From a virus (taxonomy: Duplodnaviria > Caudoviricetes), in IMG/VR virus record IMGVR_UViG_3300030330_001640, positions 3,123 through 67,122 of that record: DNA of 64,000 bases, one strand, 5' to 3'. Position numbers and translations under genes: made by a program. Below, piece after piece: positions 1 to 44,400 of this stretch. Within the stretch, counting starts at the first letter, position 1. Each line of letters begins with the position of its first letter. The notes under the pieces are model-generated. The model was not told the origin of the DNA and made no database searches. It was given only the letters and a program-made list of their open reading frames with translations.

Positions 1-35
1 GCTTGAAAGTCTTCTTGTGTTATTTCTATTGTCAT
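1..35 (-). CDS. 5' fragment of a small early protein (MTIEITQEDFQA...), runs off the left edge
   Basis: ATG at 35-33 after an A/T-rich spacer; frame open to position 1; same strand as neighbours. Confidence 0.35.
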   Translation of the reverse strand, partial: MTIEITQEDFQ

Positions 36-52
36 ATTATTAATTATTATAG

Positions 53-268
53 TTATTTCAACATAGTACCATAGCCACGTCTACGCGTTTTCTTAAGTAT
101 ATAAGCTGCTTCTTCGCTTGACATGATTTGAATCTCGTTACCGGTCTTGTGATTTGTTATTGGTATACAACCATAACGCATTACTGATGAGCAGTTAACG
201 CAAACCTTGTAGCCAAGATCGAGTCGACCTTGTGGTATGGTACTATTACATTTTAAACATTTTTTCAT
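53..268 (-). CDS. TraR/DksA-like C4 zinc-finger protein
   Basis: CLKC-NSTIPQGRL-x6-CVNC resembles the CxxC..IP..R..CxxC pattern of TraR/DksA zinc fingers. Confidence 0.55.
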   Translation of the reverse strand: MKKCLKCNSTIPQGRLDLGYKVCVNCSSVMRYGCIPITNHKTGNEIQIMSSEEAAYILKKTRRRGYGTMLK

Positions 269-275
269 ACAATAT

Positions 276-306
276 TATTATCTAATAGCTGTCGTATTTA
301 TTTTGT
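276..306 (-). promoter_or_regulatory. class I (early) promoter-like motif, copy 1
   Basis: ACAAAATAAATACGA-N7-TAGATAATA; same spacing in 4 copies, all oriented into the early genes. Confidence 0.7.
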
Positions 307-567
307 GTTTACTAATTCACAAGAATCTAACTTAGCACCTAAATCCATTTGTGTTATTAGCAAAGAATCTATTGTCCCTTTTTGTATTTCAATAGTTCTT
401 TCCCAAGCATGAGTGACCGTATGTCTTGTTATATGGTCTAATTTTTTTTCTATTTTATTAAAATGACTATGATTATGCAAGTCATTTACTACTAAAAAAG
501 CACCAATACCAATTAGTGCTAAAGTTTTCTTATTTTTCATATATTTATTTATTTTAATATTCTTCAT
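298..567 (-). CDS. hypothetical protein with N-terminal hydrophobic anchor
   Basis: ORF track; hydrophobic LALIGIGAFLVV segment; start may be the second Met. Confidence 0.65.
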   Translation of the reverse strand: MKNIKINKYMKNKKTLALIGIGAFLVVNDLHNHSHFNKIEKKLDHITRHTVTHAWERTIEIQKGTIDSLLITQMDLGAKLDSCELVNTK

Positions 568-2986: not shown

Positions 2987-3219
2987 TAGGCAATATCTTC
3001 ATTTCTCACTGCTAATGGTAAGTTATTAGTTGCAGTGTAAGATTTATACTTTGCCCAACACGCCATATTTTCTAATTTATCTTTCATTAGTGAAAATACT
3101 TTGTCATGATTATAAGTGGCAGTTTTACCATTTTTGAATTCAACATTGATAGTTGCATTTTTACCAACAAGTGATTGTCTCACTACAAATCTCTTGCTAT
3201 TTATTATATTATTTGTCAT
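2986..3219 (-). CDS. hypothetical early protein, first gene of the leftward arm
   Basis: ORF track; directly downstream of a class I promoter. Confidence 0.75.
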   Translation of the reverse strand: MTNNIINSKRFVVRQSLVGKNATINVEFKNGKTATYNHDKVFSLMKDKLENMACWAKYKSYTATNNLPLAVRNEDIA

Positions 3220-7185: not shown

Positions 7186-8751
7186 ATGGAATATAATTTA
7201 CCAAGTGAGTTGGTAAAAAACTTAGACTTCGGTGGTGAGGCTAAAGATAGAATTATCACCGGAGTTAATAAGTTAGCCCAAGCCGTTAAATCAACATTAG
7301 GTGCATCAGGAAAATGCGTTATATATGAAGATGGTAGAGGCAAGCCGGTCATTACAAAAGATGGGGTAACCGTTGCAGAGAGCGTAGTCTTATATGACCC
7401 GGTTGAAAATATGGGTGCAACTCTAATTAAAGAAGCTGCCAGAAATACAGTTAAGGATGCTGGTGATGGTACAACAACTGCTACAGTATTAGCTGAAGCA
7501 ATAATCAAACAAGTAGACGCTGCGGTCGCAGAAGGTCTTACAATCAGAGAAATTAAAGATGGAGTAACAGAAACGCTAGATAGTGTCATAAGCTATTTAA
7601 ATAATATAGCTATTGATGTAGAAGGCGACATGCTTAAATCTGTTAGCGCTATATCTTGTAACAACGATCAAGAGCTAGGAGCTATAATAGCCGAAGCTTA
7701 TGATAAGGTTGGTAAAAATGGTGTAGTACTAATGGAAGAAAGCGAATCAGAGGATACATACGTTGATATTGTTGATGGTGTAAAAGTTGATTGTGGATTA
7801 ACGTCACCGCATTTTGTAACTAATACAGAGAAACAAACATGCGAGTTAGACAAGCCATTAGTTTTTATATGCTCATCTGAAATACCTAACGTACGTAAGA
7901 TACAAACGATACTAGAGTATGTTATTAAAAATAACAGAGCTTTATTAATTGTAGCACCAGTAGCACAACAAGTTAAAGCTGCTTTACTTATGAATAAAGT
8001 AAAAGGTACTATTAAAGTTAATATTATTGATTTACCAGGCTTTGGTCCTACTAAAAAAGATGCTACAGAAGATTTAGCTATACTTACAGGCGCAACAGTG
8101 CTTAATGAAGAGTTAGGTGATGATTTAGATCTTATGAAGCCAGAACATTTAGGCGAAGCTGAGTTTTCTGTAACTGATGATAAAAATACTGTACTAACAC
8201 TAGAAGGTATGACTCAAGGCATTGAAGATAGAATAGATGAGTTAAATAAACACTTAGCTGAAGAACAAAACGGTTTTATTAAAAAGAAACTTGAAGACAG
8301 GTTAGCTATGTTATCAGGTAGTGTAGGTATAATAAGAGTAGGTGCTAATTCTAAGGTTGAATTAAAGGAAAAGAAAGACAGGGTTGAAGATGCTATATAT
8401 GCTACTAAAGCTGCGTTACAAGAAGGTATAGTACCAGGTGGTGGTATTGCATTATTAAATGCTAGTCAAAAAATTTCGACCGGACAAGCCGGTAAAGTAC
8501 TACTTAATGCTTTATCTTCTCCATATAAAACTATTGTTGATAATGCTGGTATGGAAGTTAGCACTGGTATGAAAGAAGGTTATGGTTGTAATGTTATAAC
8601 TGGTAAGTATACTAAAATGATTGATGAAGGTATTATTGATCCTGTACTTGTAACTAAGTCTGCACTTAAAAATGCTGTAAGTGTAGCATTAACTATTATG
8701 TCAGCAGATTGTGTAATCTCAAATATCAGAATAGAAAATGCAAGCAGTTAA
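7186..8751 (+). CDS. groEL: phage chaperonin GroEL (Cpn60)
   Basis: ITKDGVTVA, AGDGTTTAT, RVEDA, VPGGG and GIIDP motifs; no GGM tail. Confidence 0.97.
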   Translation: MEYNLPSELVKNLDFGGEAKDRIITGVNKLAQAVKSTLGASGKCVIYEDGRGKPVITKDGVTVAESVVLYDPVENMGATLIKEAARNTVKDAGDGTTTATVLAEAIIKQVDAAVAEGLTIREIKDGVTETLDSVISYLNNIAIDVEGDMLKSVSAISCNNDQELGAIIAEAYDKVGKNGVVLMEESESEDTYVDIVDGVKVDCGLTSPHFVTNTEKQTCELDKPLVFICSSEIPNVRKIQTILEYVIKNNRALLIVAPVAQQVKAALLMNKVKGTIKVNIIDLPGFGPTKKDATEDLAILTGATVLNEELGDDLDLMKPEHLGEAEFSVTDDKNTVLTLEGMTQGIEDRIDELNKHLAEEQNGFIKKKLEDRLAMLSGSVGIIRVGANSKVELKEKKDRVEDAIYATKAALQEGIVPGGGIALLNASQKISTGQAGKVLLNALSSPYKTIVDNAGMEVSTGMKEGYGCNVITGKYTKMIDEGIIDPVLVTKSALKNAVSVALTIMSADCVISNIRIENASS

Positions 8752-41400: not shown

Positions 41401-44400
41401 GCTCCATCACCACTTAACCCGGATATAACAATGGGTGAACAGTTGAAACTTGATGTAGATGACTTCTTAAAACAGTATCCACAATATTACGATCAATTAA
41501 GAAATACAATGACTGGTGGAATAGGGATAAGTACTTTCTTTTCTGTAGAAAACTTTGAAAAAATGTTTCCTAGAGAAAAGTATGAACTTGGCGGATTATT
41601 TGCACAACAATCGCTTCCAAGAAATAGTTATACTTTTAAAAGCGATACAAAAACTGGTAAAAAAAGAAGATTTAATCCAAAGACTTTAAATAAAAAAGAT
41701 GACTCTAAACAAAGGTTAGATATACTTTACAACTTTGCTAAAGCAATGGAGGGTTACGTAAAAACAAATAAAAATCCTAAACCAGGGAATATTTACTTAT
41801 TCTCATTAATGGCATCTGATACTGTTAATAATCAGAATGGTGCTATAACTAGAATATTATCTCCATTTAGTTTTTATACTATAATGAAAAATGGTCAGCC
41901 AGATACAACTAATATAATGACAGAAGAGCACGCTGGTCCACAAAAGAGTATAATGGATATGTTAGTTAACGCAGCTAGAGTAGGTAAAGTTGATACAGTT
42001 TGGCCTATAGTTGAAGCTGTATTTGCACAAGGAACTTTATTAGATGTAATTGATAAAAGATTAAAAGACGTTAAAAATAGAGATGGTAAAAATCTTCAAG
42101 AAAATTTACCAGATATATTTTGGGATAGCATAGCAGAAAGAGTACTTGATGGTAAACTAGATGATCTACCACAAGGCTCTATAGCTATGGTTAGATATTT
42201 TGTGGCTGGTAAAGAGTTAAATATAGACATAATAAATACCATAAAATGGAAAAACGGTAAAACACTAGCCGAAATATTTGGGGTTAAAGTAGATGGTGAG
42301 ATATCACCAACTATATTTCAAGCTCAATATGACTTAGTATTAGATTATTTATCAGGTAATATAACTAAAGAAAAATTAGCTGAAGCTGTTAATAAGTTAA
42401 ACATAGAAGGTATAAACTATGTTGATGCTGTTAAAGAAGCACGCGATGTTAAAACAGGAGTACTTACATTGAATAACAATATGTACGATAGCTATAGTAA
42501 ACCTGTTAAAGTTAGAGGTATGTCTACATTTGATTTTGATGACACGTTAGCTAGAACTAAATCAGGTGTTAGGTACACAATGCCAAATAATACTGGTGAG
42601 CCAGCGCCTGGCAGAAAAGTTATATTCTTAGCTGGTAGTGCTGGTAGCGGTAAATCAAATGTTGTTAAGCAGTTAGGTTTACAAGAAAAAGGTTTTAAAA
42701 TAGTAAACCAAGATATAGCTTTAGAGTGGTTAACTAAAAATAGTGGACTACCTACAGATATGAGAGACTTTACACCTGAGCAAGCTAGTAAATGGGGAGA
42801 ATTACAATGGGAGGCTAGAGATATAGCACAACGTAAAGCTATTAAATTTAGAGGTAGAGGAGATGGTGTTGTGGTAGATGGCACAGGGGCAAGTACTGTT
42901 TCTTTATTTACACAAGCTCAAAAATATAAAGACGCGGGATATGATGTTAAAATGTTGTTTGTAGAAAGTTCTTTAGATACAGCTTTAGCTAGAAATAAAG
43001 CTAGAAAAGAAAGATCGTTAAAAGATTTTATAGTTGAACGTAACTGGAAAGCTGTACAAAAAAATAAAAAAGCTTTTAAAGAAGAGTTTGGTAATAATTT
43101 TACAGAAGTAAATACTGATAACTTAAAACAAGGTGATGCTATGCCTAACAACGTTGTCGTAGCTATAGATAACTTTACTAGTGGTTACATAAAAGGTAGA
43201 TTAACAGCAGAAGAATTTGCTAGCAAGGGTGGAGATTTATTAGATCAAGGCGCTTCATTTGATTTTTCTGAATTTAATAAAGTTGTAGATGGCACGCCAG
43301 GTCCTTTACTTGATAAAGCTAGAAACAGAGCTAAGAAGTTTGGTACAAAAGATATGTTTGTTTTAACGGCTAGACCTCAACAATCTGCTTTTGCTATACA
43401 ACAGTTTTTAAAAGGACAAGGTTTAGATATACCAATAGAAAACATAACTGGTTTAGCTAATAGTTCTGGTAATGCTAAAGCACAGTGGATGTTAGATAAG
43501 TTTGCTGAAGGATATAACGACATGTACTTTGTAGACGATGCTCTACAAAATGTTGAAGCTGTAAAAGCCGTACTAGATCAATTAGATATTAAATCTAAAG
43601 TAGTTCAAGCTAAATTAAAAGATCAAGGTAAGTTAGTAGAACCAGGTAATAATACTATGTATAGCAAAGTAGTTAATCCTGATAACATTAATATAGATAA
43701 AGAGTTTAATAATATTCTTGAGGTTAAAAAAGGTGTTGATGCTAATAAAAGGTTTTCATCTGCAGAAGCTAGAAAAAGAGGGGCTAAATTTAGATTAAGA
43801 CTTTACATACCACCATCAGCAGAAGACTTTAAAGGTTTATTATATTATTTCTTACCTAAAGGTAAAGAAGGTGAAAAGGCTTTAAAGTTTTTCGAAAAAA
43901 CATTATTAAAACCTTTTGCAAGAGGTATTAGAGCTTGGAACTCGTACAAACAAAATATGGTTAACGAGTATAACGATTTAAGAAAAAAATTTCCAGATGT
44001 AACTAAAGTTTTAAATGATAGAGTACCTGGAACTAGTTTTACAAATGATACCGCTATAAGAGTTTATTTGTGGACAAAAGCAGGATTTGATATTCCAGGT
44101 ATATCAAAAGCATTACAAAAAAGATTAGTAACTCACGTTAATGGAAACCCTAATTTAAAAGCGTTTGCTGATGGCTTATCAAAAGTTACTCGTAGAAAAG
44201 ATGGTTATCTTCCGCCAAATAAAAATTGGATGATGGAAGCTATACCCACTGATTTAAGAAATCTTGTAGACAAAGTAGGTAGAAAAGAGTTTTTACAAGA
44301 GTGGATTAATAATAAAGAAGAAATATTTTCTCAAGAAAATATTAATAAAATAGAAGCCTTGTATGGCTCAGACTTTAAATCAGCTTTATTAGATATACTA

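Follow-up and report, generated by a model that had tools for sequence, protein, structure and literature searches.

Within the virus stretch analysed here, a 64 kb window (positions 3,123 to 67,122) of the 67,122-bp IMG/VR record IMGVR_UViG_3300030330_001640, for which CheckV gives a completeness of 100%, a P-loop kinase of 199 amino acids (aa; 42595-43191) interrupts a HAD phosphatase. The whole unit occupies positions 42508-43623 of a giant open reading frame (ORF), P0001 (35443-46011, + strand), which encodes 3522 aa in a single uninterrupted frame. Our current working hypothesis, which we consider rather probable, is that this unit is a nested, Pnkp-like bifunctional 5'-kinase/3'-phosphatase module for the healing of polynucleotide ends, carried in a protein that is probably delivered with the virion. 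An initial annotation had proposed a kinase nested at the cap position of a HAD phosphatase, and all of the motifs on which that proposal was built were found where it had placed them, in one open frame.

The first piece of the HAD domain (42508-42594, + strand, as for all elements of the unit) comprises strand beta1 with motif I (DFDDT, 42532; D2364, the nucleophile, and D2366), the squiggle and the first strand of the flap hairpin (TKSGVRYTMPNNT), and aligns with the first 30 residues of uninterrupted HAD homologues. The inserted kinase follows (segment residues 46-244), with the P-loop GSAGSGKS (42634; K2404, S2405), VNQD (42703; D2424), VVVDGTG (42868; D2479) and the lid RNKARKERS (42991; R2517, R2521). 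The C-terminal HAD piece (43192-43623) then supplies the second flap strand (KGRLTAEEF, with GRLTAEEF at 43195), the helical/beta element FDFSEF, motif II (LTAR, 43363; T2642, R2644), the motif III lysine of NAKAQW (43477; K2679) and motif IV (YFVDD, 43525; D2698, D2699), and aligns with residues ~31-178 of the uninterrupted HADs. We considered FDFSEF (43258) as a degenerate second motif I of a tandem HAD and rejected this, the element being kept in uninterrupted HADs as well (F257 and F260 are invariant); a tandem HAD is further ruled out by the N-terminal DFDDT strand, which is what aligns to HAD strand 1.

The nesting is most directly demonstrated by relatives that lack the insert. An exhaustive HMMER search of 1.84 billion representatives gave 2542 matches, 820 of them at E < 1e-30, and the best 150 were re-mapped, with segment boundaries taken from HMMER coordinates (MAFFT misaligned the sequences that have no insert, placing their first flap strand close to the end of the kinase). 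Sixty of these 150 are nested and colinear with the whole segment, and 62 hold the HAD only, segment residues 12-45 abutting residues 245-388 with no kinase between them. Three have an uninterrupted HAD with the kinase ~770-860 aa upstream, two have the HAD and then immediately the kinase, four carry other or degenerate inserts at the same point, and 20 are of partial length or unclassified (one of them being the second of the two HAD-then-kinase forms just counted). Because the two HAD pieces abut in relatives without a kinase, the kinase is a clean 199-aa block in an otherwise contiguous 180-aa domain. At residue level, the closest insert-less forms (L054 and L055, both IMG/VR loci) read ...VLFTAPDG-TKGKLNATEF... 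where the window reads ...VRYTMPNNTG(kinase)KGRLTAEEF..., from which it follows that the insert replaces a 2-4-residue turn of the beta-hairpin after motif I. This post-motif-I hairpin is the HAD 'flap', the tip of which is the canonical C1-cap insertion site. The placement of the kinase at the C1-cap position, at the tip of the flap hairpin, is therefore fully supported by sequence comparison and by the predicted structure described below. The family as a whole comprises the 2542 cluster representatives and 215 IMG/VR stretches, from metagenomic and viral contigs, some of them marine.

For the structure, AlphaFold2 was run on a 56-sequence alignment, a single-sequence model with a predicted local distance difference test score (pLDDT) of 41 having been discarded. 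The resulting model (pLDDT 86.6, predicted template modelling score 0.72) has junction blocks at pLDDT 85-95 and places, in order, HAD strand E7-13 with motif I at its end, flap strand E24-30, a complete kinase (E41-H229), the second flap strand E231-237 and the remainder of the HAD, so that the two predicted flap strands flank the insert. Relatives and model thus agree on a nested arrangement and contradict the two sequential domains that the initial annotation had named as the counter-possibility. The model was compared by VIA-align with 48,161 PDB representatives, of which the top 50 matches were considered. The best match to the kinase was the Clostridium thermocellum polynucleotide kinase (4gp6_A; Z 17.0, root-mean-square deviation (rmsd) 3.0 Å, 166/171 residues, model 36-231), followed by PSTK (Z 16.1), the putative kinase 2rhm (16.0), zeta toxin (14.3) and T4 Pnk (13.9), with the mammalian PNKP kinase at 12.1. 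Among the top 50 there was a single HAD, the 3'-phosphatase of T4 Pnkp (5uj0_B; Z 11.7, rmsd 2.6 Å, 120/142 residues), aligned to model range 5..361, that is, across the insert. Two further matches ran from the kinase into the C-terminal HAD part, namely T4 Pnkp 1ltq (224 aa aligned) and Pnkp1 4xrp_A (251 aa, Z 13.3). Foldseek agrees, with a TM score normalised to the target of 0.72-0.74 for polynucleotide kinase and of 0.48-0.52 for the zeta/PezT structures (1gvn, 3q8x), which take ranks 2-3.

The catalytic residues are intact and conserved in both domains. Model residues D13, D15 and T17 of motif I and T291, R293, K328, D347 and D348 of HAD motifs II-IV are invariant in the 56 aligned sequences. 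Among 59-60 nested representatives (45-90% identity), the P-loop is found in all, NxD in 59/60, DGTG in 59/59 and RNxxRx[ED]R in 59/60, and on the HAD side DxDxT is kept in 56/60 and LTAR in 58/60. With motifs so nearly invariant, both domains look active to judge from their sequences, and the loss of catalytic residues that the initial annotation had raised as a possible objection is not seen. It would be conceivable that the unit is a catalytically dead structural remnant in a scaffold protein, Gly standing in place of Ser/Thr after the P-loop Lys (GKG[NS] for GK[ST]) in 18/59 nested representatives (e.g. L013, L016 and L034, the other kinase motifs being kept). We regard this as highly improbable, however: GKG is also the normal P-loop pattern of adenylate kinases, the window P-loop is the canonical GKS, and the catalytic motifs of both domains stay near-invariant down to ~45% identity. 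The spacing of these motifs was compared with that of T4 PseT, the residues of which were read from its GenBank record. From the P-loop Lys to the catalytic Asp there are 20 residues in both proteins (K15-D35 in T4 PseT, K2404-D2424 in the window), the lid R122-N-x-x-R126 of T4 corresponds to R2517-N-x-x-R2521, HAD motif II is S211-x-R213 (VSGR) in T4 and T2642-x-R2644 (LTAR) here, and motif III Lys and motif IV DD lie 19 residues apart in both.

At the level of sequence families the kinase is readily recognized, and within P0001 it is the only part that Pfam recognizes. It matches AAA_33 (E 1.7e-10, 41.8 bits) and Zeta_toxin PF06414 (E 1.3e-6, 28.4 bits versus a cut-off of 22.3), both above their cut-offs, and PHROG 505 'polynucleotide kinase' (E 6e-9), a match that covers the kinase part only. 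The window HAD is marginal by sequence (PF00702, E 0.045); DUF2608, which we take to be a family of the HAD clan, matches 25/27 uninterrupted relatives (best E 3e-6). A phmmer search of the segment against PDB sequences gave no match, and a profile of the plain HADs gave only chance-level matches there (ResA thioredoxin-like, E 0.025; mammalian PNKP phosphatase, E 0.8-0.95). The HAD domain is therefore weak by sequence but clear by predicted fold. UniProt homologues are 'uncharacterized' or bear the automatic name UDP-N-acetylglucosamine (UDP-GlcNAc) kinase; an example is BFVD entry A0A218MLT5 from an uncultured virus, 70% identical, in which the surrounding HAD is unannotated. The name presumably stems from the Zeta_toxin Pfam match and is probably misleading.

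The relationship to zeta toxins does nonetheless suggest another function, that of a small-molecule enzyme pair. In one form of this reading, a zeta-toxin-like UDP-GlcNAc or nucleotide kinase and a sugar-phosphate or nucleotide phosphatase would disturb the nucleotide pools or the precursors of the cell wall at entry, and the kinase would serve as a true C1 cap that encloses the substrate. Capped HADs usually act on small molecules, the Zeta_toxin score exceeds its cut-off, zeta/PezT structures rank second and third in Foldseek, and the automatic name of a UniProt homologue points the same way. Such a role has been proposed for zeta-like kinases of polyvalent proteins (Iyer et al., 2017; PMC5512222). 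We nevertheless think this function unlikely for the window unit, because AAA_33 and the polynucleotide kinases score higher than the zeta toxins (Z 17.0 versus 14.3), the target-normalised TM scores differ in the same direction and leave much of the 270-aa zeta fold unmatched, and the HAD that comes closest in structure is a minimally capped polynucleotide 3'-phosphatase. Nucleotide-signal editing, which the initial annotation had offered beside end healing, found nothing in its support.

Comparison of the orthologous place in related giant proteins, identified by the same flanking sequence, reveals several arrangements of the two domains: nested, kinase-then-HAD (the T4 order; L051), HAD-then-kinase (the mammalian PNKP order; L052, L053, P0045, P0080) and kinase ~800 aa upstream. 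In 62/66 of the complete representatives that bear a kinase, it is nested in or adjoins the HAD, and the adjoining of the two domains in three topologies at an orthologous place argues for functional coupling. In a tree of the HAD part alone the nested forms do not make up one clade; the nested state calls for 6 changes, of which well-supported branches force at least 2. Since the junctions are identical despite this scatter, the distribution suggests a single insertion, with later recombination or exact loss of the insert.

In further relatives the tip of the flap hairpin serves as a cassette site. P0127 (L093:5208-5615) has a 140-aa insert there that contains PARP-like 'FHGG...GFVYFS' motifs and weakly matches the Pfam family ART-PolyVal (E 0.024), P0109 has an 85-aa insert, P0070 (L094:6600-7031) has a 142-aa insert and its kinase lies ~900 aa upstream, and P0081 has a degenerate kinase with the P-loop destroyed. 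These inserts, the 62 of the best 150 relatives in which the HAD stands alone, the 6 changes that the nested state needs on the HAD tree and the occurrence of the same kinase family without a HAD, in Agrobacterium phage Atu_ph07 and in T4-like marine phages, would all fit a view in which kinase and HAD are independent payloads of a modular polyvalent protein, directed at unrelated targets, the flap tip being a permissive loop and the nesting having no functional meaning. We judge this view to be unlikely too, and a shade more so than a small-molecule pair, given the 62/66 representatives in which kinase and HAD are nested or adjoining, in three topologies, and the fact that the best structural matches of both domains fall in the same bifunctional enzyme family.

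The two domains are also met apart from the giant proteins. Stand-alone HADs of this family, 180-186 aa long and 39-45% identical, are encoded on metagenome phage contigs (L088:6001-6543, L090:4678-5238); the surrounding phage DNA is rich in small ORFs, a DNA ligase follows a few kb downstream, and no kinase is encoded nearby. Together with the ligase of the phage itself (see below), this neighbourhood counts in favour of end healing. The Atu_ph07 protein (L095:1775-4108, 778 aa) has a kinase of the same family (DGTG, RNSKR lid; Zeta_toxin E 1.5e-14) combined with other domains, and its N-terminal region contains YRG...STS motifs reminiscent of R-S-E ADP-ribosyltransferases.

We return to the hypothesis of an end-healing enzyme. 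A kinase of the polynucleotide-kinase type would phosphorylate 5'-OH ends and a HAD of the T4-Pnkp type would remove 3'-phosphates, so that breaks with 5'-OH/3'-P (or cyclic-phosphate) ends made by host nucleases could be converted to 5'-P/3'-OH ends that a ligase can seal. In this unit the whole kinase would emerge from the tip of the HAD flap hairpin, as a nested module and not as an end-to-end fusion. The giant protein is probably packaged in the virion and enters the cell together with the DNA, in which case the enzyme would be on hand ahead of all phage gene expression. A possible sealing partner is the ATP-dependent DNA ligase of the phage (G000:C1:683-1564, - strand, 293 aa), encoded ~1.6 kb before the window start (L084) and matching PF01068 (E 7e-16), DNA_ligase_OB_2 and PHROG 114 (E 6e-71). 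A PF09414 match had been entertained as an RNA ligase partner and was rejected, as it belongs to an ordinary ATP-dependent DNA ligase. Because a DNA ligase is present and RtcB was not found, healing of DNA ends seems to us at least as plausible as RNA repair. It is tempting to go further and to regard the kinase as a functional C1 cap, with both active sites over one cleft and one nick or cut healed per binding event, the module serving as a pre-packaged counter-defence, ahead of phage gene expression, against host nucleases whose cuts have 5'-OH/3'-P ends (anticodon nucleases, HEPN RNases, DNA nickases); we put this forward as a doubtful extension only.

Several observations weigh against an end-healing role. 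Profile comparisons did not reveal significant sequence homology to the Pnkp families: with T4 PseT, the hhalign alignment is confined to the segment from the P-loop to NxD (35 columns, probability 83%), the DxDxT match being non-significant, and an NCBIfam scan gave nothing near a cut-off, TIGR01663 (E 0.017) and TIGR04075 (E 0.086) falling far below. Three T4 residues, R38, R176 and D254, are without obvious counterparts in the window protein. PSTK, 2rhm and zeta toxin lie within ~1-3 Z of the top structural match. In many relatives the HAD occurs with no kinase at all, and in others its flap loop is taken up by unrelated inserts. No RNA ligase was found in the phage (RtcB was absent, and the Rnl1 search was uninformative, its control itself being without a match). 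Finally, the delivery of the giant protein with the virion is deduced from its gene position and size. The 5'-kinase/3'-phosphatase activity advanced in the initial annotation accordingly keeps the support of its fold neighbours (polynucleotide kinases, the T4 Pnkp phosphatase, Pnkp1) and of motif spacing, and lacks that of significant homology to Pnkp families. Membership of the Pnkp family is thus not established by sequence, and the best-supported reading is that of a module that would work like Pnkp and is not filed as a member of that family.

As to the giant protein itself, P0001 is encoded by the last large gene of the structural module, downstream of the genes for the large terminase, the portal and several 'virion structural proteins'. 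Podoviruses of Flavobacterium, Cellulophaga, Tenacibaculum and Maribacter have terminases that share 45-64% identity with the one encoded here, a similarity that indicates a phage of marine Flavobacteriia type. The sole outside link of P0001 to a cultured phage, obtained by tblastn with its N-terminal 2339 aa, is to a 2482-aa 'structural protein' of Tenacibaculum phage Gundel_1, and this is weak (23% identity over 318 aa, E 1e-4). Among GenBank phages no match was found for the giant gene (megablast) or for its C-terminal 776 aa (tblastn), and a query of the ESM Atlas with the C-terminal region returned viral hypothetical clusters only. The word 'injected' in the initial annotation is therefore best softened: what stands behind it is the position of the gene in the structural module and the weak match to an annotated structural protein. 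In its 3522 aa, its place in the structural module and the possession by a relative of an ART-PolyVal-like insert, P0001 recalls the polyvalent proteins, giant multi-domain proteins that are thought to be delivered with the DNA and among the domains of which zeta-like kinases are listed, and we infer that P0001 may be one of them (Iyer et al., 2017; PMC5512222). In the text covered by a term search of the same article, polynucleotide kinase, PNK and phosphatase are not mentioned, and the three matches to 'had' that were shown are the verb. Elsewhere in P0001, at ~aa 1352 (window ~39496), there is a zincin-like HExxH motif (HEMIH), which no Pfam or PHROG family detects, and the C-terminal 60 aa contain two Cys/His clusters, the ESM Atlas neighbours of the C-terminal region being in part proteins with DUF5763. 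The window also encodes a GroEL-like chaperonin (7186-8751, + strand, 521 aa; PHROG 5725, E 1.7e-134).

Of the known systems, T4 Pnkp (PseT; 1ltq, 2ia5, 5uj0) has the same two folds, with DxDxT, [ST]-x-R, Lys and DD in its HAD, and provides the best HAD neighbour. T4 Pnkp is, however, a free early protein of 301 aa in which the HAD follows the kinase in tandem, whereas the window unit is nested and lies within a protein of the structural module; the tandem kinase-then-phosphatase order that the window copy lacks is found in the orthologue L051. Beyond the motifs the two share no significant sequence homology, and the search of this phage yielded no RNA ligase partner. Pnkp1 (4xrp_A) has a kinase and a T4-like phosphatase that match both halves of the model, but in tandem order and at 16% identity, and it is a cellular enzyme that works with Rnl and Hen1. 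The genus Capnocytophaga is a member of the Flavobacteriia, the class that also contains the cultured hosts of phages related to this one. The inserted kinase has its best structural match in the kinase domain of C. thermocellum Pnkp (4gp6, 4gp7), an enzyme in which the phosphatase partner is a metallophosphoesterase and not a HAD. Pnkp1 is a proven RNA 5'-kinase/3'-phosphatase with T4-like domains that heals ribotoxin-cut RNA, and the two repair complexes differ in the superfamily from which their phosphatase domains come (PMC4411300). Mammalian PNKP (1yj5, 3zvl) combines a HAD and a P-loop kinase for the healing of DNA ends, in the order seen in L052, L053 and P0045, but is a tandem protein with an FHA domain, and the match of the plain-HAD profile to its phosphatase was, as noted, non-significant. 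A precedent for the topology is provided by the P-type ATPases, in which a nucleotide-binding domain occupies the C1-cap position of a HAD-fold domain; that domain is no P-loop kinase, what it phosphorylates is the aspartate of the HAD itself, and we imply no homology to the window unit.

The literature searched contained no account of a HAD, or of a Pnkp, with a kinase nested inside it, and the family is currently unannotated or carries the automatic UDP-N-acetylglucosamine kinase name. The use of a whole P-loop kinase as a HAD C1-cap insert is of interest in its own right, and if the giant protein is ejected into the cell it would be a virion-delivered repair enzyme and a new kind of timing in counter-defence. 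The textbook kinase-phosphatase enzymes of end healing (T4 Pnkp, bacterial Pnkp1, mammalian PNKP) join their domains in tandem. In the protein family described here, one orthologous place holds these two folds in nested form, in either tandem order or apart from each other, and the set amounts to a natural experiment in which the constraints of topology on a bifunctional enzyme can be followed.

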